Origin: Candidatus Methylomirabilota bacterium
Lineage (GTDB): Bacteria; Acidobacteriota; Thermoanaerobaculia; Thermoanaerobaculales; Sulfomarinibacteraceae
Direction of reading: 5' to 3'
Assembly (NCBI GenBank): GCA_035464095.1
Contig: DATHSO010000198.1
Span: forward strand, 12,071-76,070
Length of the DNA stretch: 64,000 nt
Shown: positions 34,918 through 63,836 of the stretch, piece after piece
Layout: each line of letters opens with the position of its first letter
How positions within the stretch are numbered: position 1 is the first letter of the stretch
Notes under the pieces: model-generated
Database searches by the model: none
The model's input: only the letters and a program-made list of their open reading frames with translations
What the model was told of the DNA's origin: nothing
Position numbers and translations under genes: made by a program

Positions 34918-36075
34918 TCAGGCCTTGATCTGGCCTCGAACCTCGAGCGCGATCTTGTACAGGCCGGTCACGATGAGCAGGCCCATGGCGTAGATCGCGA
35001 GGCTGATCGTGAGCTCGGGGATGGTCGGCGTGTAGCTGACCACCTTGCCCAGCGGCGACGGCACGAAGCCGGCGATCACCATGCCCAGGCCCTTGTCGAT
35101 CCACAGCGAGCCGAAGACCGCGATGCAACCGATGATCAGGGTCGACTCGGCGCGTCGGGTGGTCGGGTTGATCAGGATGACCAGGGCGACGATGGCGAGG
35201 ATCACCGAAAGCCACATCCAGGGCGCCATGGTGGTGTTGCCCTCGATGCCGGTGAACAGGAACTCGAAGTGGTGGATGTGCTCGGGAATGTTGCTGTACA
35301 GGGCCGTGAAGACCTCCATGAGCACGAAGAAGACGTTGATGATCATGGCGTAGGTGACGATCTCGGCGAGCTTGTTGATCGCCTCCTTGCCGGGGTCGAA
35401 CTTGGTCAGTCGGCGCACCACGAAGGCGAGCAGAATGAGCAGCGCCGGGCCGGCGGCGAAGGCGGACGCCAGGAAGCGGGGGGCCAGGATCGCGGTCATC
35501 CAGAACGGACGGGCCGCGAGACCCGAGTAGAGGAACGCCGTCACGGTGTGGATCGAGACCGCCCAGGGGATCGACAGCAGGATGACGGGCTTGATCCAGC
35601 TTGGCGGCGGCTCGCCCCGGCGCTCGGAGCTCAGGGTGACCCGGCTGATGAGGATGTTGAGCACCAGGTAGCCGCCGAGGGCCACGGTGTCCCAGAACAT
35701 CATCGAGTGGGGGGTCGGGTAGAGGAAGACGTTGAAGATCCGGTCGGGACGGCCCATGTCGACGAAGATGAAGCTCATGCACATGATGACCGCCGCGATG
35801 GCGAGGAACTCGCCGAGGATGGTCATCTTGCCGAAGGCCTTGTAGTTGTGCAGGTAGTACGGCAGCACCACCATGACCGCCGACGCGGCGACGCCGACCA
35901 GGAAGGTGAACTGGGCGATGTAGAAGCCCCAGACCACGTCCCGGCTCAAGCCCGTGATGGTCAGGCCGACGTTGAGCTGCCAGAACCAGGCCGCCGCACC
36001 GGCGCCCATGATGGCCAGGAGGAAGAAGATCCAGATCCAGTACGTGCGAGTGCCCGTGAGCGCTTTCTCAAGCAT
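34918..36075 (-). CDS. dsrP: DsrP, NrfD/PsrC-family integral membrane quinone-interacting subunit
   Basis: 385 aa, about 10 TM helices, NrfD-like pattern. Last gene of the dsrMKJOP block; 8-nt overlap with dsrO. Confidence 0.9.
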   Translation of the reverse strand: MLEKALTGTRTYWIWIFFLLAIMGAGAAAWFWQLNVGLTITGLSRDVVWGFYIAQFTFLVGVAASAVMVVLPYYLHNYKAFGKMTILGEFLAIAAVIMCMSFIFVDMGRPDRIFNVFLYPTPHSMMFWDTVALGGYLVLNILISRVTLSSERRGEPPPSWIKPVILLSIPWAVSIHTVTAFLYSGLAARPFWMTAILAPRFLASAFAAGPALLILLAFVVRRLTKFDPGKEAINKLAEIVTYAMIINVFFVLMEVFTALYSNIPEHIHHFEFLFTGIEGNTTMAPWMWLSVILAIVALVILINPTTRRAESTLIIGCIAVFGSLWIDKGLGMVIAGFVPSPLGKVVSYTPTIPELTISLAIYAMGLLIVTGLYKIALEVRGQIKA

Positions 36076-36919
36076 GGCCGCCCTCCTCCGTCACCTCGAC
36101 CACGGCCGCCGGGGCGACTTCCTGGAGCGTTCTCGGGTCGTCGATGATGTAGTAGACCTCCGGCCGCGTGCCGAGTCCCGGCTTGCGCCTGATGGCCATC
36201 CGCTCGGTCAGGATCTCCCGGACCTTGGAGTGCGGGTCGTTGATGTCGCCGAAGACGATCTCGTCGTTGGTGCAGACCTCGACGCAGGCCGGCTGGAGGC
36301 CGCGGGCCAGCCGCTCCTCGCAGAAGGTGCACTTCTCGACCACGCCCCGCATCCGGGTCGGGTAGTCGATGGTGGGGTCGTCGAGGATCCTGCGGGGATC
36401 CATGTAGTTGAAGGACCGCGAGCCGTAGGGACAGGCCACCACGCAGTAGCGGCAGCCGATGCAGCGGTGCCAGTCCATCATGACGATGCCGTCGGACTCC
36501 CGCCTCCAGGTCGCCTGGGTCGGGCAGACCCGGGTGCACGGCGGGTTGTCGCAGTGGTTGCACAGCAGCAGGGTGGGCTTGCCCTTGAGGTCCTCGCGGA
36601 TGAAGTGGAACTCCTGGGAGTGGAAGGCGGTCTCGAAGTCGTCCGCCCAGATCCACTTGATCGCGTTCTTCTCGTCGTCGCCGAAGTCGGGGACGTTGTG
36701 GGTCCGGTGGCAGGCTTCGATGCAGCGCTCGACGAGCGCGTCGTTCTTGGCGAACTTGCGCAGGTCGATGACCATGGCCAGACGGACGCCGTCCGTCGAA
36801 GGGGCGTCATGGTCGGCGGCGGCGCCGCTGCTCGCGGTCGCCTTGATCGACGACGCACCGGCGGCGCCCAGGGCGGTCAGCCCGGCCAGCTTCAGGAACT
36901 TTCGTCTGCTCCCGTCCAT
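36068..36919 (-). CDS. dsrO: DsrO, periplasmic Tat-exported poly-ferredoxin
   Basis: Tat signal SRRKFLKLAG. Cluster motifs CNHCDNPPCTRVCP, CIGCRYCVVACP and CTFCEERL...CVEVC. Confidence 0.9.
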   Translation of the reverse strand: MDGSRRKFLKLAGLTALGAAGASSIKATASSGAAADHDAPSTDGVRLAMVIDLRKFAKNDALVERCIEACHRTHNVPDFGDDEKNAIKWIWADDFETAFHSQEFHFIREDLKGKPTLLLCNHCDNPPCTRVCPTQATWRRESDGIVMMDWHRCIGCRYCVVACPYGSRSFNYMDPRRILDDPTIDYPTRMRGVVEKCTFCEERLARGLQPACVEVCTNDEIVFGDINDPHSKVREILTERMAIRRKPGLGTRPEVYYIIDDPRTLQEVAPAAVVEVTEEGGHA

Positions 36920-37308
36920 CAGTTGGCCTCCTTCGGTTCCACGTGGCAGTCCCAGCAGTAGGGGTCGACCACCATGAAGTTGTGGCAGGCGTCGCAGAAC
37001 TCGGTCTTGTTGGAGTGGCAGTCCATGCAGGTGCGCGACAGGCTCATGTCGTAGACCTTGCCCGTGGTCGCGCTGACGTAGTCGCGCCGGCCGAGACGCA
37101 CCACGTCGTCCCGCCACCGATCCAGCAGGTCGATGTGGTTCTTTCGCATGGTGTCCCTGGCCTCGACGCACTCGGTGGCGCCGTTGGGCGGCGATTTGAG
37201 CTCGGGGACGTCGGGCCCCTCGGCGGTCATCGCGTTGAACCACAGCGGCGAGGTGGCGAGGACGAGGAAGACCACGATTCCGACGATGATTTTGCCCGCG
37301 TCATACAT
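36919..37308 (-). CDS. dsrJ: DsrJ, membrane-anchored triheme cytochrome c
   Basis: 129 aa with an N-terminal anchor helix and three CxxCH motifs (CMDCH, CDACH, CWDCH). Confidence 0.9.
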   Translation of the reverse strand: MYDAGKIIVGIVVFLVLATSPLWFNAMTAEGPDVPELKSPPNGATECVEARDTMRKNHIDLLDRWRDDVVRLGRRDYVSATTGKVYDMSLSRTCMDCHSNKTEFCDACHNFMVVDPYCWDCHVEPKEAN

Positions 37309-38920
37309 CGGTGGTGTCCTCCGTTTCTTTCAGCGGTTCGCCCCGCAAGTTGAGGGTGCGCTCCGGCTCGCCGTCCATCACCAGGGCGTTGGCCACCAGC
37401 TCGTGGACGCCGCTGATCTCAACCCCGGGGGCCCAGTACTGGGCGAGGGGCGGCAGCGTCGCGCGGTCGATGGCGCAGATGCAGCTCATCAGGTTGACGC
37501 CGTGGGTGTCGCGGACGTACTTGAGCGCGTTGCCCCGCGGCAGGCCGCCGCGAAGCCGCATCTCCATGTTCTCGTCGTTGCCGAGGCCGGCCCCGCCGGC
37601 GCAGCAGAAGGTGTGCTCGCGGATGGTGTTCTCCGGCATCTCGAAGAAGTTGTTGCAGACGTTCTTGAGGATGTAGCGAGGCTCCTCGAACAGGCCGAGG
37701 GCGCGCGACGGGTTGCAGGAGTCGTGGAATGTGACCCGATACTTGTCGTTACGGCTCGGGTCGAGCTTGATCTTGTTGTGGCGGATCAGGTCGGAGGTGA
37801 ACTCGCAGATGTGGACCATTTTGGTGGACGCCGCGTTGTGGAAGACGGTGCCCGTCAGGGGCGACACCGGCTGCTCCAAGAAGTCGGCAGGGCCGTTCAT
37901 GGTGTCCATGTACTGGTGCATGACCCGCCACATGTGGCCGCACTCGCCGCCGAGGATCCACTTGACGCCGAGCCGCTTGGCCTCGTGGTAGATCTTGTAG
38001 TTGAGCTTCTTGATGGTCTCGTGGGAGGTGAAGAGGCCGAAGTTGCCCCCCTCCGAGGCGTAGGCCGACATCGTGTAGTCGAGCCCGATCTGCTTGAACA
38101 GCATCAGGTAGCCGATGAAGGTGTAGGTGCCGGGGTCGGCGAAGTAGTCGGCCGAGGGGATGATGAACAGGACCTCGGCGCCCTTCTTGTTGATCACCGG
38201 GTCGACCTTGATGCCCAGGTCGTCCTCGAGCTCCTCGCACAGGAACTCGATGTTGTCCTTGAAGGTGTGGGGCTGGATGCCGAGGTGGTTGCCGGTGCGC
38301 TGGCAGTTGGCCACGGGCTCGACCACCCAGTTGATGTTGAGGCCGAGCAGCATCATGAGCTCGCGGGCCATCATGGTGATCTCGGCGGTGTCGATGCCGT
38401 AGGGGCAGTAGACGCTGCAGCGGCGGCACTCGGTGCACTGGAAGAAGTAGTAGTACCACTCCTTGAGCACGTCCTGGGTCAGCTTACGGCCGCCGGCGAG
38501 GGTCCCGAGAATCTTGCCGGCGGTGGTGAAGTCGGCCCGGTAGATGGAGCGCAGCAGCTCCGAGCGCAGGACCGGCATGTTCTTGGGGTCACCGGAGCCG
38601 ATGAAGAAGTGGCACTTGTCGGCGCAGGCGCCGCAGCGCACGCAGGTCTCCATGAACAGCCGCAGCGACCGGTACTTTGCGAGCCGCTCCTTGAAGCCGT
38701 CGTGGATGATCTGCTGCCAGTTCTCCGGCAGCTTCCAGTCCTCGTCGGTGGGCGACCAGTCACGGGGATTGGGAAAGCCCATGTACACGAGGTTCTTGGC
38801 GACCCCCGGGTAGGACCAGGTCCCGCGCCGGGACTCGAAGTCCACGGACGGGTCCATCCAGCCGCTGCGCGGCGGGTCGAGGTCGATCTGGATGAGTTCC
38901 TGAGGTGACTTCTCCGACAT
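37301..38920 (-). CDS. dsrK: DsrK, HdrD-like cytoplasmic Fe-S (CCG-domain) subunit
   Basis: 539 aa with CVRCGACADKC and CTECRRCSVYCP ferredoxin motifs and CCG-type Cys clusters (FHDSCNP..., FCCAGGAG). Confidence 0.92.
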   Translation of the reverse strand: MSEKSPQELIQIDLDPPRSGWMDPSVDFESRRGTWSYPGVAKNLVYMGFPNPRDWSPTDEDWKLPENWQQIIHDGFKERLAKYRSLRLFMETCVRCGACADKCHFFIGSGDPKNMPVLRSELLRSIYRADFTTAGKILGTLAGGRKLTQDVLKEWYYYFFQCTECRRCSVYCPYGIDTAEITMMARELMMLLGLNINWVVEPVANCQRTGNHLGIQPHTFKDNIEFLCEELEDDLGIKVDPVINKKGAEVLFIIPSADYFADPGTYTFIGYLMLFKQIGLDYTMSAYASEGGNFGLFTSHETIKKLNYKIYHEAKRLGVKWILGGECGHMWRVMHQYMDTMNGPADFLEQPVSPLTGTVFHNAASTKMVHICEFTSDLIRHNKIKLDPSRNDKYRVTFHDSCNPSRALGLFEEPRYILKNVCNNFFEMPENTIREHTFCCAGGAGLGNDENMEMRLRGGLPRGNALKYVRDTHGVNLMSCICAIDRATLPPLAQYWAPGVEISGVHELVANALVMDGEPERTLNLRGEPLKETEDTTDV

Positions 38921-38923
38921 CGC

Positions 38924-39919
38924 TCACTCCTTGTCCAAAACGTAGCCGGAGGCCACCAGCTTGTCGTGGAACTCCTCCTCCCACTCGGCGTAGGTGTGGC
39001 CGATGATGGGCGGGTTCCACGGGTTGACGTGGCGCTTGGTACGGTTGGTGTTGGCCAGGTTGCGGGTCGGGGACAGGAACACCCCGGGAGCGTGCAGGAG
39101 CTTGGAGAAGGGGAAGTAGACGAACAGCACGCTGACCAGGAAGACGTGGATGAAGTACAGCGGCCCGACCCCCGACGGGGCCACCAGCTCGAACGAGGCC
39201 CAGCCGGCGATCGCCGCCTTGACGTTGACGATGTCGACCTTTTCGACGTGGCGCATCAGAAAGCCCGAGATCCCGATGCCGAGCAGCAGGTACAGGACGA
39301 AGTAGTCGCTCGGCAGGGAGATGTACTTGAGCTTGGGGTCGAAGAACCGGCGGGCGAGCAGGTAGGCGAGCGACACCATGAAGAGGATCGAGGTGATGTA
39401 GAAGACCGGCAGACCGACCCGGAAGAAGCCGTCGGCCCACTGCAGCCAGCCCACCCACAGCGGGACCGGCTCGACGAAGAACCGGAAGTGCCGCAGCACG
39501 ACGATCAGCATCGACCAGTGGAAGGCCATGGCGGCCGCCCAGAGGTACTTGGTGCTGATGTAGTTGACCTTCTGCTTGTGGGGCAGGAGCTCGACCTTGG
39601 TGTTGCGGAACAGGGACCTGAAGAAGAAGATCTCCAGGAACATCCGCCCGATCACCCCGAGCGTCCCGCTGGGGTTGTCGAGCTCTGATCTCTTGATCCA
39701 GGGCAGCGACCTCTGCTGACCGGCGGTGGTGGGAATCCGGAACGGGACCGGTGCTCGCGCCCACCGGATCACCCTGGCGATGAGGCCCACCAGGAAGACC
39801 GCGAACGCGACGCCCGGGATCACCGCCCCGAACAGCAACCGCAGATCGTCAGAGGCGACCGCCGTGACGGCGACCAGTGCCAATGCGGCGACCGCGACGA
39901 GGGAAACCAAGGCACCCAT
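38924..39919 (-). CDS. dsrM: DsrM, NarI/HdrE-like dihaem b membrane subunit
   Basis: 331 aa with 5-6 TM helices and conserved His residues (HWSM, RHF, MRH, IHV). First gene of dsrMKJOP. Confidence 0.88.
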   Translation of the reverse strand: MGALVSLVAVAALALVAVTAVASDDLRLLFGAVIPGVAFAVFLVGLIARVIRWARAPVPFRIPTTAGQQRSLPWIKRSELDNPSGTLGVIGRMFLEIFFFRSLFRNTKVELLPHKQKVNYISTKYLWAAAMAFHWSMLIVVLRHFRFFVEPVPLWVGWLQWADGFFRVGLPVFYITSILFMVSLAYLLARRFFDPKLKYISLPSDYFVLYLLLGIGISGFLMRHVEKVDIVNVKAAIAGWASFELVAPSGVGPLYFIHVFLVSVLFVYFPFSKLLHAPGVFLSPTRNLANTNRTKRHVNPWNPPIIGHTYAEWEEEFHDKLVASGYVLDKE

Positions 39920-40048
39920 CGACTCGAGACCTCCTTCCTACAACAATCGGATCCGGCCGCGGGCGACCCGGAGTCGGCCGGAAGCGTGATTCTCGCGCGT
40001 GGCCGGTGGCAGCCGCCGGGCTCCCGGAGAGAAGCACGGGGTCGCCAC

Positions 40049-40567
40049 CTATCTCGAGCCCGAGGATGGCTCGCCGGCACGCTGCTCGCGCCACTCGTTG
40101 AGGCGTTCCATCTGTTTCAGCGAACGGTTGCGGATCTCTCGCACCCGGATCTCGGAGACCTGCTCGCGGCAGCCGCTGTAGACGTCGAACGCGGCCAGCA
40201 GCAGGTGGTCGACCCGGTCGTCGAAGTCGCGTCGCACGGCGTCCGAGGCTTCGGACACGACGTCGTCGAAGATCTCCTTGAGGTCGAGGACGAAGCCGAC
40301 CGCCTGCGACGGTGACATGTCCTGCAGGGCCCGGATCCGGACGATCCGGTCGAGACCCGGGGCCAGCTGGACCGGGTCCCGGTCGTCGAGCACGCCGTCG
40401 AGGATCGGCGCGAGCTCCTCGCGGAGCGCCGCGCCCACGGGGTTGGCGAACGGGTCTTGCTGGTCGCGCAGAAAGCGCGCGGTCTCGACCGGGTAGCGGT
40501 CGACGATCCGGTCGAACCACCGTTCGACCACCGTGTCCCGATCGGTCTGACTGAGGTGCAGCGACAT
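40049..40567 (-). CDS. dsrT: DsrT-like protein (RsbRD N-terminal-domain family)
   Basis: 172 aa from ATG 40567 (GGGAGGG ribosome-binding site). The position immediately upstream of dsrM matches dsrT in other dsr loci. A sigma-54 promoter lies inside the longer ORF-track version, which argues for the shorter start. Confidence 0.6.
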   Translation of the reverse strand: MSLHLSQTDRDTVVERWFDRIVDRYPVETARFLRDQQDPFANPVGAALREELAPILDGVLDDRDPVQLAPGLDRIVRIRALQDMSPSQAVGFVLDLKEIFDDVVSEASDAVRRDFDDRVDHLLLAAFDVYSGCREQVSEIRVREIRNRSLKQMERLNEWREQRAGEPSSGSR

Positions 40568-40595
40568 CGACGCCCTCCCGAATCGTTCTCCCCCG

Positions 40596-40611
40596 TGCAA
40601 CCGTTGTGCCA
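40596..40611 (-). promoter_or_regulatory. Sigma-54 (-24/-12) promoter for dsrT-dsrMKJOP
   Basis: The minus strand reads TGGCACAACGGTTGCA, matching TGGCAC-N5-TTGCA with correct GG/GC spacing. It ends about 29 nt upstream of ATG 40567. Confidence 0.75.
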
Positions 40612-40750
40612 GTGGTCGGGACGCCCCCCCGTTCCGCAAAACACTCATCCTGCGCGACCTGGCCCGCCTCCAGGAGCCTTTCGCGCCCGCGATCCGTCAC
40701 CTGGCGTTTCGGCCACGTAACGAGCCTCCCGGGAACGCGGGCATCCGGAG

Positions 40751-40786
40751 AAAAAACGCCCCGCCGCCTCGCCTCCCGAGGGAGGC
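40751..40786 (-). terminator. Terminator-like hairpin plus U-run downstream of dsrC
   Basis: On the minus strand, GCCTCC-CTCG-GGAGGC is followed 14 nt later by TTTTTT. Confidence 0.45.
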
Positions 40787-40823
40787 AAGACGGAAGGGCA
40801 CCGCGGTTACGAGACGTGGTCGG

Positions 40824-41141
40824 TCAGACGCAGCCGGTCGGCTTGGGAAGGCCTGCGACCTTGCAGGCGCCCTTGGCCGGACCCGACGGGAACAGCTCGT
40901 AGATCTCCTTGAGCTGGAAGCCGGTCTGCTTGCAGAGCTTGCGGATCATGGGCGCGACACCGAACTGCAGGTAGTAGTCGCGCAGGTAGTTCACGACCTT
41001 CCAGTGGTTCTCGGTCAGCTCGTCCACGCCCTCGGTGGTCGCCAGCGCTGCCGCGACGTCCTCGTTCCACTTGTCGGGCTCCTGCATGAAGCCGTCCTCG
41101 TCGACCGAAATGGAGACGTTGCCGTGCTCGAAAGTTGCCAT
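40824..41141 (-). CDS. dsrC: DsrC (TusE/DsrC family) with both redox-active C-terminal cysteines
   Basis: 105 aa. The C-terminus is ...GACKVAGLPKPTGCV: the penultimate Cys plus a Cys 10 residues upstream. GGGAGG ribosome-binding site. Confidence 0.93.
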   Translation of the reverse strand: MATFEHGNVSISVDEDGFMQEPDKWNEDVAAALATTEGVDELTENHWKVVNYLRDYYLQFGVAPMIRKLCKQTGFQLKEIYELFPSGPAKGACKVAGLPKPTGCV

Positions 41142-41144
41142 TAC

Positions 41145-41738
41145 TCAATCCTCCCTTGGTTTGTCCGGGCCTTCAGCGCCGGTGATTTCCACGAGTGTGA
41201 CGCTGCCCTTGCGGGCCTTCTTCATTTGAGCCTTCTCCATGGCCTTGACGAAGTCCTGGGACGGCGCGTGGCCGAGCTCCATGGCGCGCCCGAGGTGCCT
41301 CTCGGCGGCCCCGAGGTTGTCGAGCGCGAGCTGGGCCACCGCCGCGTGGTAGTGGGCCGCGGCGTGCTCCCGGTCGAGCTCGATGACCCGCTCGTTGCAC
41401 TTCAACAGATTTCCGGGGTCGTTGAGGTAGAGGTAGGCCTGCCCCAGGTTGTAGTGAGCCACCACCGAGTTCTCATCCAGCTTGATGGCCTCCAGGTTGG
41501 CGTCCCGGCACCCGGCGAACTCCCACCGCATGAGCAGTACACCGCCCAGGTTGACCCACGCCTCGACCATCGTCGGGTCGAGCTCGAGGGCCTTGCGGTA
41601 CGCCTCCTCCGCGGCCTTCACCCGTCCGGAAACGGTGTAGGCGAGCCCCAGATTGTAATGAGCGGCGGCCGAGTCGGGGGTGTCCTCGACCGCTTGCAGG
41701 CAGCGCTCGATGCGCTGCCGTTGGCTTTCACGACTCAT
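41145..41738 (-). CDS. TPR-repeat protein
   Basis: 197 aa with about 4 TPR units (AHYNLGLAY, AWVNLGGVL, AHYNLGQAY, AHYHAAVAQ). GGAGG ribosome-binding site. The stop is 3 nt before the dsrC start. Confidence 0.8.
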   Translation of the reverse strand: MSRESQRQRIERCLQAVEDTPDSAAAHYNLGLAYTVSGRVKAAEEAYRKALELDPTMVEAWVNLGGVLLMRWEFAGCRDANLEAIKLDENSVVAHYNLGQAYLYLNDPGNLLKCNERVIELDREHAAAHYHAAVAQLALDNLGAAERHLGRAMELGHAPSQDFVKAMEKAQMKKARKGSVTLVEITGAEGPDKPRED

Positions 41739-42219
41739 CGAGTCCTCCAGACACCTCGAGCAGCCTGTCCAGGGCGTCGCGCTCGGCCTGGCTTTCGAGG
41801 TCGACGTGCTCGGCGACCTCGCCGCACAGAGGGCCGACCAGCTCGGGGGCTGCCTCGGCAATCCGGGCGAGGGCGCGCAGGATTTCCGGCCGGAGGCCAT
41901 CGTCCCAGGCCAGGGAAGCGAGGGGCGCCACGAAGGGTCGGATCAGCTCGGGATCGCGGTATCCGATCTCGGCCAGGGCCGGAATACCGTACAGGCCGTT
42001 GGTCGCCGACTCGTCGTTCAGGGCCCACATCAGCCGCCGCAGGAGATCACGGCCGACCTCGCGGTGGCTGGCCGCGGCCACGCCCAGGGCGCGGGCGGCA
42101 CGTTGCCGCATGGCCTCGTCCGGGTCCCACAGCCGCCCCAGCAGGAAACGGATCGCCCTCGGCTGGCTGCTTGCCAGCGCGCCGAGTGCCCGTTCGTCTC
42201 CGGCCCGGAGCAGCTCCAT
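41728..42219 (-). CDS. HEAT/armadillo-like helical-repeat protein
   Basis: About 163 aa, Leu/Ala/Arg-rich helical repeats (DPDEAMRQRAARALG..., RPEILRALARI). The start is either ATG 42219 (preferred) or ATG 42240. It overlaps both neighbours. Confidence 0.6.
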   Translation of the reverse strand: MELLRAGDERALGALASSQPRAIRFLLGRLWDPDEAMRQRAARALGVAAASHREVGRDLLRRLMWALNDESATNGLYGIPALAEIGYRDPELIRPFVAPLASLAWDDGLRPEILRALARIAEAAPELVGPLCGEVAEHVDLESQAERDALDRLLEVSGGLDES

Positions 42220-42230
42220 CACTCGTCCCT

Positions 42231-43631
42231 TCAGCCCCATGCCGCCGCCGGTTGGGTGACCTCGGCCGAGTGGGTCGTGGCCGATGCCAGGAAACCGTCG
42301 GCCCAACCGGGGGTCGCCGACGCGTGCAGGTGCAGGTACGAGGCCCACACCCGTCCCTTCACGATCCCGTCCCGACCGTCGCCGATCCCGGTCCCGCGGT
42401 CGACGGCGGCGACTGCAGCGTTCCGGTCCTCGCCCCCGACGATTCGGGAGTAGTGGAACTCGTGGCCCCTCAGCTCGGTGCCGACTTCGAAGAACGGGTT
42501 GGCGCGATCGACGGTGACGATCTCGTAGCCGTGGCCCTGCGGTCTGGCGGTCTGCTCGACCACCAGGTCCAGGACGCCCGCCATGGGGTAGCTCGAGCCG
42601 CCGACCCGAAGCTCCCGCGCCAAATACATGAGGCCGCCGCACTCGGCGTAGACCGGCAGGCCGCCGGCGGCCCGCTCACGCACCGACTCGGCGAAGCAGC
42701 GGTTATCAGCGAGACGCGCGGCGTGGACCTCCGGGAAACCGCCGCCGATGTAGAGGCCGTCGACCTCGGGCAGGCGGCGGTCGTCGCTCGGCGACACCGC
42801 CACCAGCCGGGCGCCGGCGGCCTCGAGCGCCTCCAGGTTCTCGGGGTAGTAGAAGCTGAAGGCCCGGTCCGAGAAGTAGCCGATGGCGACCCGGGTCCGG
42901 CCCGGCCGGAGGTCGGCCACGTCGAGCTCGACCGCGGGCGCGCCGGCGGCCAGCGCCTGAAGGCGAGCCAGGTCGACGTGCGCGGCCACCGCGTCGGCGG
43001 CGCGCTCGATGGCCTCGTCGCGGCGGGGGTGCTCCACCGCCGTGACCAGACCCAGGTGACGGTCCGGCAGTGGGTCGTCACCGCGAAGCTTCGGGACCGC
43101 GCCGACCACCGGAATGCCGGTCGCACTCTCGATGGCCTCGCGCACCACCGCCTCCTGCCGGGAGGTGGCGACCCGATTGAGGATCACCCCGGCCAGGTCG
43201 AGCTCCGGGTCGAGGTGGATCGAGCCGAGCACCGCCGCCGCGGCGGTGCGCGTGACCTTGGTGACATTGACCACGAGCACCACCGGCGAGGCCAGGAGCT
43301 TCGCCAGGGTGGCCGTGGAGTGGCTGCCGGCGGCGTCGACGCCGTCGAACAGGCCACGGTTGCCCTCCACGAGAAGGAGGTCGGCGTCCGACCCGGCCGC
43401 GACGGCCCGACCGATGAACGACACCGTCATGAGGTAGGGATCGAGGTTGCGACACGGGCGACCGGTCGCGGCGGCCAACCAGGCGGCGTCGATGTAGTCC
43501 GGGCCCTTCTTGAAGGCCTGGACCACCCGACCGGTCCGGGTGAGCGCCCGGCACAGACCGAGGCTGACCAGGGTCTTGCCGCCGTCGCCGGCAAGCCCGG
43601 CGACCACCAGCCGGGGAGTTCGCAGTCGCAT
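42231..43631 (-). CDS. dsrN: DsrN, cobyrinate a,c-diamide synthase-family amidotransferase (siroheme amidase)
   Basis: 466 aa with an N-terminal P-loop (AGLAGDGGKT), KGPDYID, and a C-terminal GATase with AECGGLMYL. Confidence 0.88.
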   Translation of the reverse strand: MRLRTPRLVVAGLAGDGGKTLVSLGLCRALTRTGRVVQAFKKGPDYIDAAWLAAATGRPCRNLDPYLMTVSFIGRAVAAGSDADLLLVEGNRGLFDGVDAAGSHSTATLAKLLASPVVLVVNVTKVTRTAAAAVLGSIHLDPELDLAGVILNRVATSRQEAVVREAIESATGIPVVGAVPKLRGDDPLPDRHLGLVTAVEHPRRDEAIERAADAVAAHVDLARLQALAAGAPAVELDVADLRPGRTRVAIGYFSDRAFSFYYPENLEALEAAGARLVAVSPSDDRRLPEVDGLYIGGGFPEVHAARLADNRCFAESVRERAAGGLPVYAECGGLMYLARELRVGGSSYPMAGVLDLVVEQTARPQGHGYEIVTVDRANPFFEVGTELRGHEFHYSRIVGGEDRNAAVAAVDRGTGIGDGRDGIVKGRVWASYLHLHASATPGWADGFLASATTHSAEVTQPAAAWG

Positions 43632-43657
43632 GATCCGGTCGTCCGTGCGCTCCCCCG

Positions 43658-45400
43658 CTACTCGCCGATGATGAAGCCGCAGGGACATTCCTCCCAACAC
43701 TTCTTGCAGCCGTCACAGTTCTCCATCCTCTTGATCTCGAAGAAGTGACCGTGGACCGGCTCAGTAGCCTTGGCGAAGACGTTGGCCTGGCAGTACATCC
43801 AGCAGTTCTCGCAGCCGAAGCACTGGCCACAGCTGAAGCAGCGGTCGCACTCGACGAGGGCGTCCGCGTCGGTGAGACCCAGGTCGACCTCGTCGAAGGG
43901 GTGGGCGAGGCGGTCGTCGGCCGTCTTCACCCGACGCTGGGTGCGCTCGATGGGCTTGTACCAGTCGAGCTTGAGCTTCTCGCTGCGGATCATGTCGCGC
44001 TTCTTGGGCTTTTCCAGCTCCTTGCCCTGGAGCTTGGCGTGGATCGCGTCCGCCGCTATCCGCGCCTGGCCGATGGAGGTGGTGGCGATGCCGAGATTGA
44101 TGTTGTCGCCGCCGGTCCAGATGCCGTCGACGCCGGTGAAGCCCCACTCGTCGCCGTTGAGCCAGCCGTTGCCGAGCTCGGCCGAGTGCAGGGACGCCAG
44201 GTCGGGCTTCTGGCTGACGGCGGTGATCATGGTCTCCACCGGCAGCTCGTAGGTGTCGCCCTCGATCGGCACGGGACGCCGGCGGCCGGAGCTGTCGGGC
44301 TCGCCGAGCTCCATGCGCTGGACGACCATCGCCTTGAGGGCGCCCTCGTCGTCCCGGATGAGCTCGATGGGGGCGGCCAGGTACTCGATGTTGATGCCCT
44401 CTTCCAGGGCCTCCTCGATCTCGCGCTCGATGGCCGGCATCTCGGCCCGGGTGCGGCGGTAGAGAATCGTCACCTCGGCGCCGAGCTTGGAAGCCATCGC
44501 CGCCGAGTCGGTGATCACCCGCTTGGACACCCGCGCCGCGTCGATGGCGGTGTCGCCGCCACCGATGACCACGACGTTGGAGCCGATCTCGACCTTCTTG
44601 CCGGAGTTCACGTGGTTGAGGAACTCAGTCCCCGTCCACAGGCCGGGGCCATCCTCCCCGGGGATGCCCATGTTCTTGCCCTGGTGGGCGCCGATGGCGA
44701 CGTAGATCGCTGCGTACTCCTTGCGGATGTCGTCGAAGGAGACGTCCTTGCCGATCTTGGTGTCGCACTTGAGCTCCACGCCCATGTCGACGATGCGCTG
44801 GATCTCGGCGTCGAGGATCTCGCGAGGCAGCCGGTAGACGGGAATGCCGTAGCGCAGCATCCCGCCCGGCTTGGGGAGGCTCTCGAACACGGTCACCTTG
44901 TAGCCGTAACGGGCGAGCTGGTAGGCGCAGGCCAGGCCGGAAGGACCGGCCCCGACGACGGCGATCTTCTGGTCCTTGGGACCCTCGCCCTCGATCATCG
45001 CGGGCTTGAGGCCGTGCTCCAGGGCGTAGTCGCCGATGAAGCGCTCGACCGAGTTGATGCCCACCGGCCCGTCCTTCTTGCCGCGGTTGCAGCCGGTCTC
45101 GCAGGGGTGCGGGCACACCCGACCCATGACGGATGGGAACGGGTTGGTCTCCATCTCGATCATGAAGGCCTGCTCGCAGGCCTCGTCGAGGCTGAGACCG
45201 AGCTTCTCGCGCAGCTGGATCACCGACAGCCAGCCGCGGATGTCATTGCCGCTCGGGCAATTGCCGGTGCACGGCGGCAGGCTCTCGACGTAGCGGGGCC
45301 GCAGCTCGGAAATCTGGGAGCCGCTGCCGGCGCCGCCACCGGCCAGGCGTGACGCCATCTTGCTCGACGAACTCTTGTCTTTCTTCTTCAACAGACCCAT
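43658..45400 (-). CDS. dsrL: DsrL, GltD-like NAD(P)H:acceptor oxidoreductase with N- and C-terminal Fe-S domains
   Basis: 580 aa. CTGNCPSGNDIRGW and CPHPCETGC; IAVVGAGPSGLACAY and VVVIGGGDTAIDAA dinucleotide folds; C-terminal ferredoxin CDRCFSCGQCFGCENC / CDGCKKCWEECPC. Confidence 0.88.
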   Translation of the reverse strand: MGLLKKKDKSSSSKMASRLAGGGAGSGSQISELRPRYVESLPPCTGNCPSGNDIRGWLSVIQLREKLGLSLDEACEQAFMIEMETNPFPSVMGRVCPHPCETGCNRGKKDGPVGINSVERFIGDYALEHGLKPAMIEGEGPKDQKIAVVGAGPSGLACAYQLARYGYKVTVFESLPKPGGMLRYGIPVYRLPREILDAEIQRIVDMGVELKCDTKIGKDVSFDDIRKEYAAIYVAIGAHQGKNMGIPGEDGPGLWTGTEFLNHVNSGKKVEIGSNVVVIGGGDTAIDAARVSKRVITDSAAMASKLGAEVTILYRRTRAEMPAIEREIEEALEEGINIEYLAAPIELIRDDEGALKAMVVQRMELGEPDSSGRRRPVPIEGDTYELPVETMITAVSQKPDLASLHSAELGNGWLNGDEWGFTGVDGIWTGGDNINLGIATTSIGQARIAADAIHAKLQGKELEKPKKRDMIRSEKLKLDWYKPIERTQRRVKTADDRLAHPFDEVDLGLTDADALVECDRCFSCGQCFGCENCWMYCQANVFAKATEPVHGHFFEIKRMENCDGCKKCWEECPCGFIIGE

Positions 45401-45441
45401 TGAAACGTCTCCTCACTGCGGCGAGTTCAGGCAGCGGACCC

Positions 45442-45885
45442 TCAGCCCATCTTCGACATGTGGAGCTTGAACTTCTCCAGCTCGCCCAGGATCGTGTCGT
45501 GCTTCTGCTCGTCGCGGAGCAGGTAGTCGAGCAGGATGTTGGCGATGGGATCGGTCGATTCTTCCTTGAGTCGCGTTGCGAGCTCGATGGTCTGCCGCTC
45601 GAGCTCATCGTGGGCCTCGATCTGGCCCCAGACCTCGGCCAGGTCCTCGGGGGAAACCTTGAGCGGGGCCTTGGTCATGCTGTCGATCAGGAACTGCTGC
45701 ACCCGGTGGTGCTGCACCGAGTCGTTGCGGATGATCTCCATGATCTGCCGGATCAGGAGGTTGTCGGTCTTCTCCATGATCTGGGCGGTGGTCTCGATGG
45801 CATCGCGCTCGATGCCCTGCCACTGCCGGAGGACGTCCACCATCTCGGCGATCCGCTCCGGGCCGGTCTTCTTGTCGCGCGCCAT
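45442..45885 (-). CDS. Ferritin-like four-helix-bundle protein of unknown function
   Basis: 147 aa, all-helical. Paired E/H-containing segments (RNDSVQHHRV and RDEQKHDTILGELE). GGAGG ribosome-binding site. Embedded between dsrD and dsrL. Confidence 0.7.
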   Translation of the reverse strand: MARDKKTGPERIAEMVDVLRQWQGIERDAIETTAQIMEKTDNLLIRQIMEIIRNDSVQHHRVQQFLIDSMTKAPLKVSPEDLAEVWGQIEAHDELERQTIELATRLKEESTDPIANILLDYLLRDEQKHDTILGELEKFKLHMSKMG

Positions 45886-45970
45886 AGCTTCCTCCAGTGG
45901 TGAGGGGCGGTCGAAGGAGGGGGGAGGTCGACCTCCACCCCTCCCGGACCGCTCGGGTTTGCAGAGTCGC

Positions 45971-46201
45971 CTAGCCTTCGGGCAGCGTGACGTAGCTGCC
46001 GCCGGCGTACTTGTAGGTCAGGCGGCCGGAGTCGATGAGCTGGCGCAAGGCCTGCTTGCACATCCGCTTGTCGACCTCATCACCGAACTGCTCGATCATT
46101 TGCTTGGTGACGTCCATGGGCTTGAGATCCCTCTTGCCCTTCGTGGACGCGACCAGCTCGTACATCGCGTCGGCCACCTGATCTACCGTCACATCGGCCA
46201 T
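45971..46201 (-). CDS. dsrD: DsrD, small winged-helix protein
   Basis: 76 aa, 10 nt downstream of dsrB. The Lys-rich winged-helix pattern ends ...GRLTYKYAGGSYVTLPEG, like DsrD of sulfate reducers. Confidence 0.85.
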   Translation of the reverse strand: MADVTVDQVADAMYELVASTKGKRDLKPMDVTKQMIEQFGDEVDKRMCKQALRQLIDSGRLTYKYAGGSYVTLPEG

Positions 46202-46211
46202 GGTGTCCTCC

Positions 46212-47291
46212 TCAGTGGCGCAGCTGCACCGTCCTGTTGTAGGTCTCCCCGGCGTGCTTGAAGTCGTCGATATGGTACTTGGTGAACTCCTGGCCGATGA
46301 GCTCGAAGAACTTCGGCCAGCCGATGCGGTCGATCCACTCGCCCATCCGTTCGTGCTTGCGCGCGTTGGCGGCGTAGGTCTCGAGGATCTTCTTGACCGC
46401 CTCGACGACCTCGGGCCAGCGCGGCGGGTGGTTGGGCAGGAAGGGGACGGCGAGCTTGGAGAACTTGGGCGTGACGCGCGAGTTGGAGACCTTGCCGCCG
46501 ACCCAGATCGAGATGCCGTCGGTGTGGGCGTTGTTGATCTTCACCGCCGGGCAGACCGTGTAGCAGTTGCCGCAATACATGCACTGCTCTTCGATGATCT
46601 CGATGGACTGGGCCCCGTTGACCGTGGCCGGCCGGATCGCGCCGGTCGGGCAGGAGGCGATCAGGTTCGGGATCTCGCACATCTTGGGCAGGTTCTCGTG
46701 CTCGATCACCGGCGCCCGGGTGTGGACGCCGAGGATCGCGATGTCGGAGCAGTGGACGGCGCCGCACATGTTGAGGCAGCAGGCGTAGGCGATCCGGGTC
46801 TTCGCCGGCAGGTCCTTTTCGCCGGTGAAGTACGGGAAGAGCTCGTCCATCACGGACTTGACCACGCCCGAGGCGTCCGAGGCCGCCGAGTGGCAGTGGA
46901 CCCAGCCCTGGGTGTGGACGATGTTGGAGAGCTTGGCGCCGAGGCCGCCGATCGGGAAGCCGTAGTCCTCGAGCTCCTTGATCAGGGGCTCGATCTTCGA
47001 CTCGTCGGTGAGCAGGAACTCGACGTTGTTGCGGCTGGTCCAGCGCAGATGGCCGTCACAGTACTTGTCCGCGATGTCGCAGAACTTGCGGATCGAGGTG
47101 ATCGCGAGCAGGCGCGGCGTCGCCGCGCGAACCGTGAACAGCTTGTCGCCGGACTCGGCGACGTGCACCATCACGCCCGGCTTGAGGATCTCGTGGTAGT
47201 CCCACTTGCCGTAGTTCTTCTTGATGACCTCGGGCAGGAACTGCTCGTAATGTGGGGGTCCAATGTCGGTTCGACGTTCGAATGCAGGCAT
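46212..47291 (-). CDS. dsrB: Dissimilatory sulfite reductase beta subunit
   Basis: 359 aa with the siroheme/Fe-S Cys motifs ([23 protein letters not shown]) and the ferredoxin insert ([18 protein letters not shown]). Confidence 0.95.
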
Positions 47292-47305
47292 GAGTTCCTC
47301 CCTCC

Positions 47306-48514
47306 CTACTCTTCGAAGATCTCGTCGTCGAAGAAGATGTACGGGTTTGTCCGGGGGTGCATGACCATCTCGGGGGCCGGGTCGAGGCCGATCTCCCCGA
47401 GGAAGTTGGACAGGCCGACCCGCTGGATGAACTCGCCCACCCGCTCGCGGTTCTTGCCGTGCTCACCCCACAGGTCCCAGATCGCCTCGGTGAGCTCCTT
47501 GAGATCCTCGTAGTCCGACTCCGGATCCATCTCCAGGAAGGGCACGAAGACCGAGCACAGGAGAGCGCCGCCGATGATCGGCGCCTTGCCGCCGATGAGA
47601 ATGGTGGCCCCGCGCTCCTTGCCGGGCTTGAGGGCCTTGGGCATCAGGTTGATGCAGTGCATGCACTTGACGCAGTTCGCGTCGTCGATGTCGAGGGTCG
47701 AGCCGTCCCACTCGATGCAGCGGGTCGGGCACAGGTCGCAGACCTCGGCCTGGACGTCGACGCCGTTCTTCGAGTACTCGACGACCTTGGCGTTGTCGAC
47801 CTGGATGTCGTCCTTCCAGACGCCGATGACGGAGCAGTCCGAGCGGGCGATGGACGCCACGCAGTCGTTCGGGCAGCCGGAGAACTTGAACTTGTACTTG
47901 TAGGGGAAGAACGGCCGGTGCAGCTCGTCCTGGAAGTTCTGGGTGATGTTGTAGCAGGCGTCCAGGGTGTCGTAGCAGGCCCACTCACAGCGCGCCGGGC
48001 CGACGCAGCAGGACGGCGTGCGCATGTTGGAGCCGGAGCCGCCGAGGTCGAAGCTCGGCATGTCGTCCTTCTCCGAGCTGAGCTCCGCGAAGAGCGGCTC
48101 GAGGGCCTCGGTCTTGCAGCCGAGGAAGACGATGTCGCCGGTGGACCCGTGCATGTTGGTCAGACCCGAGCCGTGCTTCTCCCACACGTCACAGATGTGG
48201 CGCAGCGCCTTCGTGTTGTAGAACCACGCCGACGGCTGGTTGATGCGGCAGGTGTGGAACATCTCGACGTTGGGGAAGTCTTGCGGAAGGTCGCTGTAGC
48301 GGCCGATCACGCCACCGCCGTAGCCCATCACGCCGACGATGCCGCCGTGCTTCCAGTGGCTGATGTGCTCCTCGTAGGAGCGTTCGAGGATGCCGAGCGC
48401 GTCGTTGGACATCGCGTTGTGCCCGGCCTCCTTCTTCATCTCCTTGACGAAGCTCGGCCACGGTCCCTTCTCGAGCTCGTCAAGCAGCGGCGTTTCGTGC
48501 TTCTTCACTGTCAT
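47306..48514 (-). CDS. dsrA: Dissimilatory sulfite reductase alpha subunit
   Basis: 402 aa from ATG 48514 (AAGGAG ribosome-binding site). Motifs: [21 protein letters not shown] and the ferredoxin insert CDLCPTRC / CVKCMHC. Confidence 0.95.
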
Positions 48515-48677
48515 GGCCACTCCTTTCCAATCATCATCGGACTCTGAAACTCTTCGTGACGCGAAGCCACCGCGAGGGACGGCGACGGGCTTCGGCATCT
48601 GCATCCGGTCAAGCTCGACTCCTCCTTCACATCATCGACGAGCGCCGGCGGACGACGCTCGCACCGGAGGGCAGTCT

Positions 48678-48693
48678 TGCAACCCGTGTGCCA
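48678..48693 (-). promoter_or_regulatory. Sigma-54 (-24/-12) promoter for the dsrAB... operon
   Basis: The minus strand reads TGGCACACGGGTTGCA, matching TGGCAC-N5-TTGCA. It lies about 165 nt upstream of the dsrA ATG. Confidence 0.75.
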
Positions 48694-48756
48694 GAGGGCC
48701 GCGCGGACGAGATCGGTTCAAGTGACTCTCGAATCGAGGTTTGAGCGGCTTCCTGC

Positions 48757-48771
48757 GCGCTTCGGAAGCGC
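48757..48771. promoter_or_regulatory. Perfect 7-1-7 palindrome, candidate enhancer (UAS) site
   Basis: GCGCTTC-G-GAAGCGC lies about 65 nt upstream of the -24 element, between the EBP gene and the dsrA promoter. Confidence 0.4.
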
Positions 48772-48793
48772 CCGTTTCCCGGTCGCGGGTTAC

Positions 48794-50251
48794 CTAATCG
48801 TAACGGGTCGGGAGAGCGGCTCGGCCGCCGTTTCGGGATCCCCCGTCCGGGTGACTGCGACCGTCCTGCTCGGGGACCTCGATTCCGAGGCCCCGGATCT
48901 TGCGGAACAGGGTGCTCGGGTGGATGCCGAGGAGCTCGGCGGCGGCCTTCCGGTTGCCCTCGGTCCGGCGCAGGGCGTTGGCGATGTGGAGCCGCTCCAT
49001 CGCCTGCAGCGTGGTGGGCGCGCCCCCTTCGCGGCGTTCAGCTGCGCTGTCCCGGGTCAGCTCGGGCGGCAGGTGGTTGAGCTCGATGACGCTGCCGCGG
49101 CACAGCACGAAGGCGTGCTCGACGATGTTCTCGAGCTCGCGGGCGTTGCCCGGGTAGTCGTGGTTCATGAGAACCTCGAGGACCTCGTCCGAGACCCCCA
49201 CCACATCCTTCTCCTGCAGCCGGTTGAAGCGCCCGATGAAGTGGTCGATGAGCAATGGGATGTCCTCGCGCCGCTCGCGAAGCGTGGGCAGATCCAGGCG
49301 CATGACGTTGATGCGGTAGAACAGGTCCTCGCGGAAGGTTCCCTCCTTGACCAGCTCCGCCAGGTCGCGGTGGGTGGCGGCGATGACCCGGACATTCGCC
49401 GACACCGGCTCCACCGAGCCGAGCGGCTCGTAGACCTGCTCCTGGAGGACCCGCAGCAGGCGCACCTGCATGGCGGGCGAGATGTCGCCGATCTCGTCGA
49501 GGAGAATCGTGCCGCCCTCGGCGTGCGCGAAGCGCCCCGGACGGTCGTGGCGAGCGTCCGTGTAGGCACCGGCTTTGACGCCGAACAGCTCGGACTCGAG
49601 GAGGGTGTCGGGCATGGCGCCGCAGTTGATGGCCACGAAACGCTTGTCCCGGCGCGGCGAGAGGTTGTGGATGGCCCGCGCGAAGAGCTCCTTGCCGGTG
49701 CCGCTGGCGCCGTGGATGACCACCGTGCTGTCGCTGGCGGCCACCGCCGGCAGGACCCCGAACAGGTCTCGCATGGCCGCGCTGCGGCCGATGATGTCGC
49801 CCAGGGAGTAGCGCGCCTCGAGCGCCTTGCGCAGCTCCTCCACCTGGCTCAGGTCGCGGATGGTCTCCACTCCGCCCACGAGCTGACCGTGTTCGTTGCG
49901 CAGGACGGTGGTCGAGATCCTGATCGGCAGCTTGCGGCCGCGGGCGTCGATGACGAAGGCGGCCCGGTCGACCACCGGTTCGCCGGTCTCCATGGTGTGG
50001 CGGAGCGGGCAGACGCTGTTGCAGATGCTCGCCTGGAACACCTCGCAGCACCGACGCCCGATGGCCTTCTGCCTGGGAATGCCGGTGATCCGTTCGGCGG
50101 CACGGTTGAAGTAGGCGATCCGCCAGTCCCGGTCGACGGTGAACACCCCCTCGGCCACGCTGTCGAGGATGATGCGCCCGATTCCCGGCTCGTTGGCCTG
50201 CAGGGCGAGGCTCCACTGCCCCCGCTCCCGCTTCGGTTCCTGCGATGTCAT
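48794..50251 (-). CDS. PAS-domain sigma-54 enhancer-binding protein (PAS-AAA+-Fis HTH)
   Basis: 485 aa. The PAS domain carries CC-x7-C-x3-C (RRCCEVFQASICNSVCPLRH). AAA+ has GASGTGKE, LLDEIGD and a GAYTDA variant of GAFTGA. The C-terminus reads GNRKAAAELLGIHPSTLFRKIR. Confidence 0.92.
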   Translation of the reverse strand: MTSQEPKRERGQWSLALQANEPGIGRIILDSVAEGVFTVDRDWRIAYFNRAAERITGIPRQKAIGRRCCEVFQASICNSVCPLRHTMETGEPVVDRAAFVIDARGRKLPIRISTTVLRNEHGQLVGGVETIRDLSQVEELRKALEARYSLGDIIGRSAAMRDLFGVLPAVAASDSTVVIHGASGTGKELFARAIHNLSPRRDKRFVAINCGAMPDTLLESELFGVKAGAYTDARHDRPGRFAHAEGGTILLDEIGDISPAMQVRLLRVLQEQVYEPLGSVEPVSANVRVIAATHRDLAELVKEGTFREDLFYRINVMRLDLPTLRERREDIPLLIDHFIGRFNRLQEKDVVGVSDEVLEVLMNHDYPGNARELENIVEHAFVLCRGSVIELNHLPPELTRDSAAERREGGAPTTLQAMERLHIANALRRTEGNRKAAAELLGIHPSTLFRKIRGLGIEVPEQDGRSHPDGGSRNGGRAALPTRYD

Positions 50252-51666: not shown

Positions 51667-51749
51667 CCTCCAGTCCCGACACGGGCACAGCTCCATCGGC
51701 ACGGCGACCCGACGACGCTCGCGACCCGCGCCCCGGTGCTTCGGAAGGC

Positions 51750-52127
51750 TCAGGCGGCTCCGATCAGCTCCCGAACCTTGTCCAGGAACGCCCCCCGCTC
51801 GATGGGCTTCTCGACCACCGCCTCGGGCGGCCGCAGCTCACCGAGGTACCCGAAGAAGTCGTCCGACCTCGCGAGCCCCGTGAGCACGATGATCGGGATG
51901 GCCGAGGTCTTGTCCGAGGTCCGCAGACCGCGATACGCCTTGACCCCGGACTTCTTCGGCATCAGCACGTCGAGGGTGATCAGGTCGGGCTTATGGGCCT
52001 CGGCGAGCCACACCCCCTCGTCGCCGTCCGCGGCCGAGTCGGTCTCGTAGCCCGCCTTGCGGAACAGGGCTTCGAGGTACACGCGCATGTCCTTCTCGTC
52101 GTCGATAATGAGGATCTTCTTCGGCAT
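51750..52127 (-). CDS. Stand-alone CheY-like receiver protein
   Basis: 125 aa with ILIIDDE, LDVLMP and ...IVLTG...KP motifs. No output domain. Confidence 0.9.
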   Translation of the reverse strand: MPKKILIIDDEKDMRVYLEALFRKAGYETDSAADGDEGVWLAEAHKPDLITLDVLMPKKSGVKAYRGLRTSDKTSAIPIIVLTGLARSDDFFGYLGELRPPEAVVEKPIERGAFLDKVRELIGAA

Positions 52128-52151
52128 CTCTCTGACCTCCCGGTTCGCCGC

Positions 52152-52991: not shown

Positions 52992-53089
52992 TGCAGCCCT
53001 CCTTTCAGTAAGGGCGTTGCCACGGACGGGGTCGTCCGAAGCCGCAGAAGTGCAGCCGGGCGACCGGGTGTTGCCGGTTGGACAGTGGG

Positions 53090-53619: not shown

Positions 53620-53625
53620 CCCCCC

Positions 53626-57358: not shown

Positions 57359-57372
57359 GGTTGTCCAACCCC

Positions 57373-63820: not shown

Positions 63821-63836
63821 AGCAATTGCCATGCCC
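63821..63836 (-). promoter_or_regulatory. Sigma-54-type promoter upstream of the third NarI/HdrD pair
   Basis: The minus strand reads GGGCATGGCAATTGCT, i.e. GGCAT-G-N4-TTGCT with correct GG/GC spacing. It lies about 197 nt upstream of ATG 63624. Confidence 0.6.

Follow-up and report, generated by a model that had tools for sequence, protein, structure and literature searches.

The window analysed here, a 64-kb stretch of DNA with a GC content of about 69%, carries the dsr genes for a sulfite reductase and a membrane electron-transfer complex in two operons, with the gene of a sigma-54 activator (bacterial enhancer-binding protein) ending just upstream of the first; features lie on the minus strand unless noted otherwise. 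Judged by DsrA, whose identity is 93% and 92% with proteins of Thermoanaerobaculia/Thermoanaerobaculales metagenome-assembled genomes (MAGs; L001 and L002) and 87% with one from a Candidatus Sulfomarinibacter MAG, the source is an acidobacterium of the marine and sediment dsr-bearing group (Flieder 2021, PMC8528874). Genes were called from Pfam and NCBIfam profile matches, the coding-frame GC signal at third codon positions and the translations (Table 1). Each operon is preceded by a sigma-54-type promoter and, at a nearly constant distance further upstream, by an inverted repeat, and we propose that this pair of elements, read by the adjacent activator, would place both operons under redox-gated control.

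Promoters and inverted repeats of the two operons

The promoter of the first operon, P(dsrA), has its GG at 48692/48691 and its GC at 48680/48679, the exact GG-N10-GC spacing, with 165 nt from the GC to the dsrA ATG and a predicted start near 48667 that would give a leader of about 153 nt. A first-pass annotation of this DNA had placed a sigma-54 promoter here, with the same spacing, distance and start; its coordinates are correct, and its reading is supported by the recurrence of the motif before dsrA in 42 of 80 related loci. It overlooked a second promoter of identical build, P(dsrT), before dsrT-dsrMKJOP, which lies 30 nt before the dsrT ATG (40567) and downstream of the dsrC terminator, with a start predicted near 40585. 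Both promoters read YTGGCACG-N4-TTGCW with the -24 GG and -12 GC 10 nt apart. Exact matches to TGGCAC-N5-TTGCW number two in the window, against 0.01 expected from shuffled sequence, and both are intergenic and face dsr genes; matches with two mismatches occur at the level of chance (22 against 18.3 expected), so that information resides only in the near-perfect sites.

The second shared element is the inverted repeat GTTAC-N6-GTAAC, which, with at most one mismatch allowed, occurs exactly twice in the 64 kb against 0.21 expected, once upstream of each promoter (UAS-1 and UAS-2). UAS-1 begins 111 nt upstream of the TGGCAC of P(dsrA) and overlaps the TAG stop codon of the activator gene (48796-48794), while UAS-2 stands in almost the same place relative to P(dsrT). 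Between repeat and promoter, each module also has an element resembling the core of an IHF site, and the pattern [CG]A[AG]-N4-TT[AG] is found at the same position in 15 of the 42 related sites as well as at both window promoters; GAGTCACTTG and GAGTGTTTTG are possibly IHF sites.

One further sigma-54-type site in the window, TGGCATGACCGTTGCT (60732-60747, minus strand), has a single mismatch and lies about 65 nt before a TmcD-family gene (59397-60665, minus strand; NF045725, 532.9 bits). All three good matches (48693, 40611 and 60747) are intergenic and correctly oriented, and as no GTTAC repeat precedes the third, a different activator would be needed there. A site with two mismatches, GGGCATGGCAATTGCT (63821-63836, minus strand), a level at which chance matches are common, stands upstream of a possibly HmcE-like membrane gene with a Nitrate_red_gam domain (62689-63657).

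Table 1. Features of the dsr locus in the window, listed in minus-strand order
Feature	Coordinates	Strand	Details
Activator (enhancer-binding protein) gene	48794..50251	-	PAS, Sigma54_activat, AAA_lid_14, Fis-type HTH_8
UAS-1, candidate activator-binding site	48789..48804	-	GTTACgattagGTAAC, GTTAC-N6-GTAAC
Palindrome GCGCTTC-c-GAAGCGC	48757..48771	-	GCGCTTCcGAAGCGC; centre C on minus strand, G on plus strand
IHF-core-like element, P(dsrA)	48719..48728	-	GAGTCACTTG; 35 nt upstream of TGGCAC
P(dsrA)	48678..48693	-	TGGCACACGGGTTGCA; as matched to YTGGCACG-N4-TTGCW, cTGGCACAcgggTTGCA
yeiH 3'-end remnant	48627..48642	-	CTCGTCGATGATGTGA; from alignment with L001, L010, L017
Operon 1	40824..48514	-	dsrA through dsrC
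dsrA	47306-48514	-	TIGR02064, 559.6 bits, over cut-off; ATG at 48514
dsrB	46212-47291	-	TIGR02066, 525.4 bits, over cut-off
dsrD-like, 76 residues	45971-46201	-	Named from position and literature on these MAGs (Flieder 2021, PMC8528874)
Gene of 147-residue protein	45442-45885	-	Function unassigned; between dsrD-like and dsrL-like genes
dsrL-like flavoprotein	43658-45400	-	Named from position and Flieder 2021 (PMC8528874)
dsrN	42231-43700	-	Pfam/NCBIfam
TPR gene	41145-41900	-	Pfam/NCBIfam
dsrC	40824-41141	-	Pfam/NCBIfam
Intrinsic terminator after dsrC	40751..40799	-	18-bp stem, then six T; -43.6 kcal/mol, z = -4.04
UAS-2, one mismatch (GAAAC variant)	40706..40721	-	GTTACgtggccGAAAC; begins 110 nt upstream of P(dsrT) TGGCAC
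IHF-core-like element, P(dsrT)	40637..40646	-	GAGTGTTTTG; 35 nt upstream of TGGCAC
P(dsrT)	40596..40611	-	TGGCACAACGGTTGCA; as matched to YTGGCACG-N4-TTGCW, cTGGCACAacggTTGCA
Operon 2	34918..40567	-	dsrT, then dsrMKJOP; Pfam
dsrT	40049-40567	-	RsbRD_N domain; ATG at 40567
dsrM	38924-39919	-	Pfam
dsrK	37301-38920	-	Pfam
dsrJ	36919-37308	-	No Pfam match; named from position
dsrO	about 36068-36916	-	Pfam
dsrP	34918-36075	-	Pfam

Conservation of the module and the history of its first gene

A strand-blind scan for the repeat-promoter pair across 80 loci around DsrA relatives found it in 42, nearly all of them labelled Acidobacteriota. The pair is always on the dsrA strand, ahead of either dsrA or yeiH-dsrA, and occurs nowhere else in those loci. 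Most of the loci that bear an Acidobacteriota label have a near-consensus sigma-54 element ahead of dsrA. Its spacing is strikingly uniform, with 109, 110 or 111 nt from the start of the repeat to the start of the promoter in 39 loci, 108 nt in two and 114 nt in one. The promoter is likewise conserved in L081, L082, L164 and L165. Neither the sigma-54 element nor the pair stands upstream of dsrA in any of the 21 loci L060-L080, whose labels include Myxococcota, Ignavibacteria, Nitrospirae, Planctomycetota and Deltaproteobacteria (L069 alone has an Acidobacteria label); the taxonomic labels of MAGs may contain binning errors.

Conservation in an alignment of 44 sites is confined to the repeat, the -24/-12 element and, ahead of TGGCAC, an AA at about 50 nt and a TTTG at about 30 nt; the DNA between these elements varies freely, a pattern that is the footprint expected from selection on protein-binding sites. 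The 42 sites of the repeat tally were pre-selected for at most one mismatch, and the unbiased evidence comes from the upstream regions set side by side and from the 44-site alignment.

The module before dsrT recurs in 14 DsrK loci, the closest among them. Seven of these have the GAAAC variant of the repeat, with a spacing of 109 nt in L152 and of 110 nt in L084, L086, L087, L089, L090 and L102, and the other seven have related forms. These relatives were gathered with DsrK as the metagenome query; a metagenome scan with DsrT as the query returned no relatives. The dsrC terminator, which a strict-rule terminator scan passed over and folding detected, divides the dsr cluster of the window into two sigma-54 operons, and both the terminator gap and the second promoter are missing in sister clades. 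Between P(dsrA) and dsrA the scan showed no terminator. In Sulfomarinibacter-like loci, the dsrC-dsrT gap is only about 100 nt long and lacks the repeat-promoter pair, and these genomes therefore probably have one long dsr operon. The same clade carries an inverted repeat of CRP/FNR-type appearance, TGTGG-N6-TCACG, which begins 27 nt upstream of TGGCAC (L004, L005, L006, L011-L014, L081 and L082; L010 has a similar one with a different right half) and could be the site of a second regulator. A CRP/FNR- or Rex-type site was also considered for the window promoter, and none was found in the window.

The history of the promoter is bound up with a gene that the window has lost. About 20 loci (e.g., L006 2253-3932) have, between promoter and dsrA, a gene of about 555 codons for a YeiH-family membrane protein, which matches PF03601 and, below the cut-off, TIGR00698 ('putative sulfate export transporter'), and in many relatives this is the first gene of the sigma-54 operon. 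Only decayed remnants of it persist in L001, L004, L005, L010, L011, L013, L014 and L017, and in the window and L002 an additional deletion of about 190 nt has left just the last 16 nt. On the evidence of this comparison, the promoter was at first that of a yeiH-like gene, since deleted in the window, a point that the first reading of the DNA overlooked. The deletion would explain the long leader of about 153 nt, and the consensus, still perfect after the loss of yeiH, suggests that the promoter was kept for dsrAB.

The leader itself folds no better than shuffled sequence (z = 0.36), which gives no evidence for a riboswitch or attenuator, and Rfam yielded no match up to E = 1 across 40300-49000. 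It contains a 33-codon open reading frame (48511-48612, minus strand) with an AAGGAGG ribosome-binding site and a TTG start, whose TGA stop overlaps the dsrA ATG (ATGA). L001, L002, L010 and L017 have the same ribosome-binding site and TTG and an N terminus that is similarly basic, and the frame may encode a leader peptide or may merely be conserved DNA.

Among the other genes of the cluster, the 76-residue dsrD-like product is without a match in Pfam, which includes the DsrD family, or in NCBIfam, and dsrT has no NCBIfam equivalog. The 147-residue protein is also without a Pfam or NCBIfam match; a gene of equal size, again without a Pfam match, occupies its position in L081, L082, L164 and L165, and its recurring E/Q-x-x-H spacing points to a small helical protein that possibly binds metal.

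The adjacent enhancer-binding protein

The activator gene probably starts at the ATG at 50251, with the frame open back to a GTG at 50434. That a PAS-AAA+-HTH enhancer-binding protein gene adjoins the promoter region had been noted on the first pass, and Pfam confirms the domains (PF00158 at 4.2e-66); in the PDB the product matches ZraR (6.5e-87), NifA and NtrC1. It reaches the cut-off of none of the NCBIfam equivalogs, the best of which is PrdR with 364.7 bits against 795; NifA, AtoC, ZraR and others also score below their cut-offs. Orthologs of 451-461 residues are numerous and share 74-97% identity. An ortholog adjoins the repeat-promoter module in 12 dsrA loci, and all four independently sampled single-PAS orthologs (P0072, P0111, P0039 and P0116) show the same arrangement, namely a divergent PAS kinase, the activator, the repeat and promoter, and dsrAB with or without yeiH. 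The multi-PAS relatives P0026 and P0118 lie in other gene contexts.

The last 25 or so residues of the activator (48794-48880) are not conserved, and in this lineage the frame runs into the inverted repeat, so that candidate enhancer and coding sequence overlap. In L004, for instance, the activator frame ends more than 100 nt short of the repeat. Upstream of the activator (50245-58531), gene order is conserved in L081, L082, L164 and L165, and comprises a divergent PAS histidine kinase, a response regulator, a HEAT-repeat protein, another response regulator and an hmc-like set made up of a multihaem cytochrome, an Fe-S protein and an NrfD-type membrane protein, with a DVU_0533-like small protein in relatives.

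The PAS domain of the activator carries the motif C68-C69-E70-x6-C77-x3-C81 (C-x-E-x6-C-x3-C), in which each of the four cysteines is conserved to at least 98% across 109 sequences. The sigma-54 contact loop reads GAYTDA, with GAFTDA in 105 of 108 short orthologs, where the canonical form is GAFTGA. All four PAS domains of P0026, which is 52% identical, show this cysteine motif, and the P0026 gene lies beside orp-type genes (CbiA/Fer4, Nitro_FeMo-Co).

Perhaps the closest parallel is OrpR (DVU2106) of Desulfovibrio vulgaris Hildenborough, whose [4Fe-4S] cluster senses redox state and is bound by C52, D/E54, C61 and C65 (Fievet et al. 2021, PMC8359166) and which activates sigma-54 promoters only at low redox potential (PMC8359166). 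An OrpR variant with three cysteines mutated is constitutive. The contact loop of OrpR is GAFTDA (PMC4641369), and an IHF requirement is reported for the orp operons (PMC3897727). Like OrpR, the window protein is a single-component sigma-54 activator without a receiver domain, with a Fis-type HTH and a GAFTDA-type loop; the PAS cysteine spacing C-x-[DE]-x6-C-x3-C is common to both, and in both cases the gene adjoins its known or proposed target promoters, with two operons that are (or would be) controlled and an IHF-type element between palindromic enhancer and promoter. The differences lie in the targets, which are dsr rather than orp genes, in the site, which is GGGCGYRTTTTGCGCCC for OrpR whereas the candidate here is GTTAC-N6-GTAAC, in the host phylum, Acidobacteriota, and in a fourth conserved cysteine next to the first. 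The window protein is best described as a relative of OrpR, a putative paralog by gene context, and not as OrpR itself. A DNA specificity of its own is suggested by its dsr neighbours and by a conserved site other than that of OrpR.

Classical sigma-54 systems such as NtrC/glnAp2 and NifA/nifH, the latter with IHF, also rely on enhancer-dependent promoters. The window modules share with them the -24 GG/-12 GC element, an upstream inverted repeat at about -130, a possible bend site in between and, in the proposed scheme, the need for an activator. They differ in having one 16-bp repeat in place of tandem sites, an unusually strict spacing of 108-111 nt across a phylum-level clade, and a cysteine-rich PAS domain in place of a receiver or GAF domain as the signal domain. 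For the dsr genes of Desulfovibrio, control by the Rex repressor is no more than a prediction (PMC4045070). That scheme, like a predicted CRP/FNR-type one, would also couple dsrAB and dsrMKJOP expression to redox state, but the scheme proposed here would work through sigma-54-dependent activation, not repression.

Proposed regulation and its alternatives

We tentatively propose the following mechanism. Each operon would be served by a module of three parts, with GTTAC-N6-GTAAC about 130 nt before the start, an IHF-like bend site at about 60 nt and the TGGCAC-N5-TTGCA promoter. Sigma-54 RNA polymerase would occupy the -24/-12 element, unable to open the DNA alone, while the activator binds the inverted repeat through its Fis-type HTH. 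A bend, possibly at [CG]A[AG]-N4-TT[AG], would loop the DNA and bring activator and polymerase together, and the AAA+ ATPase with its GAYTDA loop would then remodel the closed complex, ATP hydrolysis opening the promoter. A [4Fe-4S] cluster in the PAS domain would permit this only under reducing conditions, with oxidation switching the system off; the OrpR-type cysteine spacing makes it most likely that the activator is on at low redox potential. As a result, anoxia would gate both the sulfite reductase operon and the membrane electron-transfer complex, whose expression would be coordinated. Relatives of this organism are reportedly facultative.

We put the probability at about 70% that the window carries such a two-operon, sigma-54-dependent, redox-gated dsr regulon under the adjacent Fe-S PAS activator. 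Several observations weigh against it. The IHF-like core is weak in the window, and each promoter has one 16-bp repeat where many activators use two or more sites. GAYTDA departs from the canonical loop and is known merely as a tolerated variant, found in DVU2275 as GAFTDA is in DVU2106, both considered active in D. vulgaris (Kazakov et al. 2015, PMC4641369), and the comparison with OrpR is built on published residue numbers rather than an aligned OrpR sequence. In about 30 loci, no activator gene lies within some 2-4 kb upstream of the module. No RpoN-box peptide was found in the window or in the related loci searched, and rpoN is not in the window. A simple sigma-70 promoter scan of both promoter regions found nothing, which is weak evidence given the insensitivity of such a scan in an acidobacterium of 69% GC, and an additional housekeeping promoter or read-through from the activator gene is possible. 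A second sigma-54 activator in the window (27439-28818, minus strand), with receiver, AAA+ and HTH domains and a canonical GAFTGA loop, bears on the matter of rpoN. By its presence the genome appears to use sigma-54 beyond the dsr genes, and two such activators within 64 kb make rpoN likely. A HAMP-HisKA kinase gene (28815-30296, minus strand) adjoins this second activator gene.

Where the module has no adjacent activator gene, that gene could lie at another place in the genome, or the repeat could be read by another protein. The promoters and repeat of the window could similarly be functional but served by an activator from elsewhere, with the adjacent gene regulating, for example, its hmc-like neighbours. 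That the loci in question have DsrK-like, MIP-family or other genes upstream of the module, and that the window itself encodes a second sigma-54 activator, is in keeping with this explanation. We nevertheless consider it unlikely, because in the 12 dsrA loci and for all four single-PAS orthologs, irrespective of yeiH, the end of the activator gene lies just ahead of the repeat, and there is no further repeat-promoter pair in the window or any locus. It is less likely still that dsrAB transcription stems mainly from a housekeeping promoter that escaped recognition, or from transcripts running on out of the activator gene, and that the sigma-54 site is accessory or a relic of the yeiH promoter. 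The promoter did originally precede a YeiH-family gene, a simple terminator scan found no terminator after the activator gene, and acidobacterial housekeeping promoters are poorly defined; yet the consensus is perfect where yeiH has decayed or gone (the window, L001, L002, L010, L017, L035, L049 and L059), the short yeiH-dsrA gap in loci with an intact yeiH implies that dsrAB already relied on the same promoter, and the sigma-70 scan was negative.

The first-pass annotation had read dsrAB expression as activator-gated and had singled out the palindrome GCGCTTC-N-GAAGCGC, implicitly as the enhancer; the first part is sustained by the adjacent activator and the conserved promoter, and the second is not supported. 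The palindrome does exist at 48771..48757, a perfect 7-1-7 repeat, unique in the window as a sequence, and its position about 70 nt upstream of the -24 element is a possible enhancer distance. It is, however, absent from the matching position in L001 and L002, the closest relatives by DsrA identity, and in every other aligned site, has no counterpart upstream of the dsrT promoter and shows nothing unusual on folding (z = 0.00). The window has 82 perfect palindromes of this grade (arms of 7 bp or more, spacer of 0-3 nt), so that about 0.36 would be expected per 280-nt gap. Tests of the palindrome as enhancer, terminator and repeated motif all came out negative, and it is probably incidental; that it is the site from which the sigma-54 promoter is activated seems to us very improbable, and we propose as candidate enhancer the GTTAC repeat, 18-33 nt further upstream. 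A chance origin of the sigma-54 motif itself, to which the chance frequency of two-mismatch matches might seem to point, is effectively refuted by its conservation in 42 loci with a partner element at a fixed distance, and by the two exact matches against 0.01 expected.

What would be new in the proposed dsr regulon is the regulon and the phylum; the kind of regulation is already known. A full-text literature search found no paper linking sigma-54 to the control of dsrAB or dsrMKJOP, and dsr genes are not mentioned in the Desulfovibrio sigma-54 regulon literature examined (including PMC4641369). The main acidobacterial and global dsr genomics papers (PMC6018796, PMC8528874 and PMC10591310) are silent on dsr regulators, promoters and sigma factors. 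In a 2025 survey of sigma-54 regulons, the only sulfite reductase to appear is a subunit of assimilatory type in Aquificia, and Acidobacteria go unmentioned.

A broader proposal, which we offer tentatively and at somewhat less than even odds, is that the OrpR-like Fe-S PAS activator, the GTTAC-N6-GTAAC repeat and sigma-54 together make up a master switch for the Dsr pathway as a whole, ancestral in the sampled dsr-bearing Acidobacteriota (MAGs labelled Thermoanaerobaculia, Holophagae or from peat or permafrost), and that this switch originally co-expressed a YeiH-family anion exporter with dsrAB. Dsr-bearing Acidobacteriota are abundant in peat and marine sediments, and genome content alone cannot tell sulfite or sulfate respiration from sulfur oxidation via Dsr (Flieder 2021, PMC8528874). 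A conserved, dedicated and probably redox-sensing activator makes this question of direction testable, and the repeat-promoter module provides a cis-element signature by which MAGs can be searched for co-regulated genes. If the proposed regulon is real, the OrpR class of Fe-S PAS sigma-54 activators reaches a new phylum and a core energy pathway. Should the ancestral switch also prove true, its redox set-point would show the conditions, and hence the direction, in which Dsr operates, and the module could be used as a genomic marker for that physiology.

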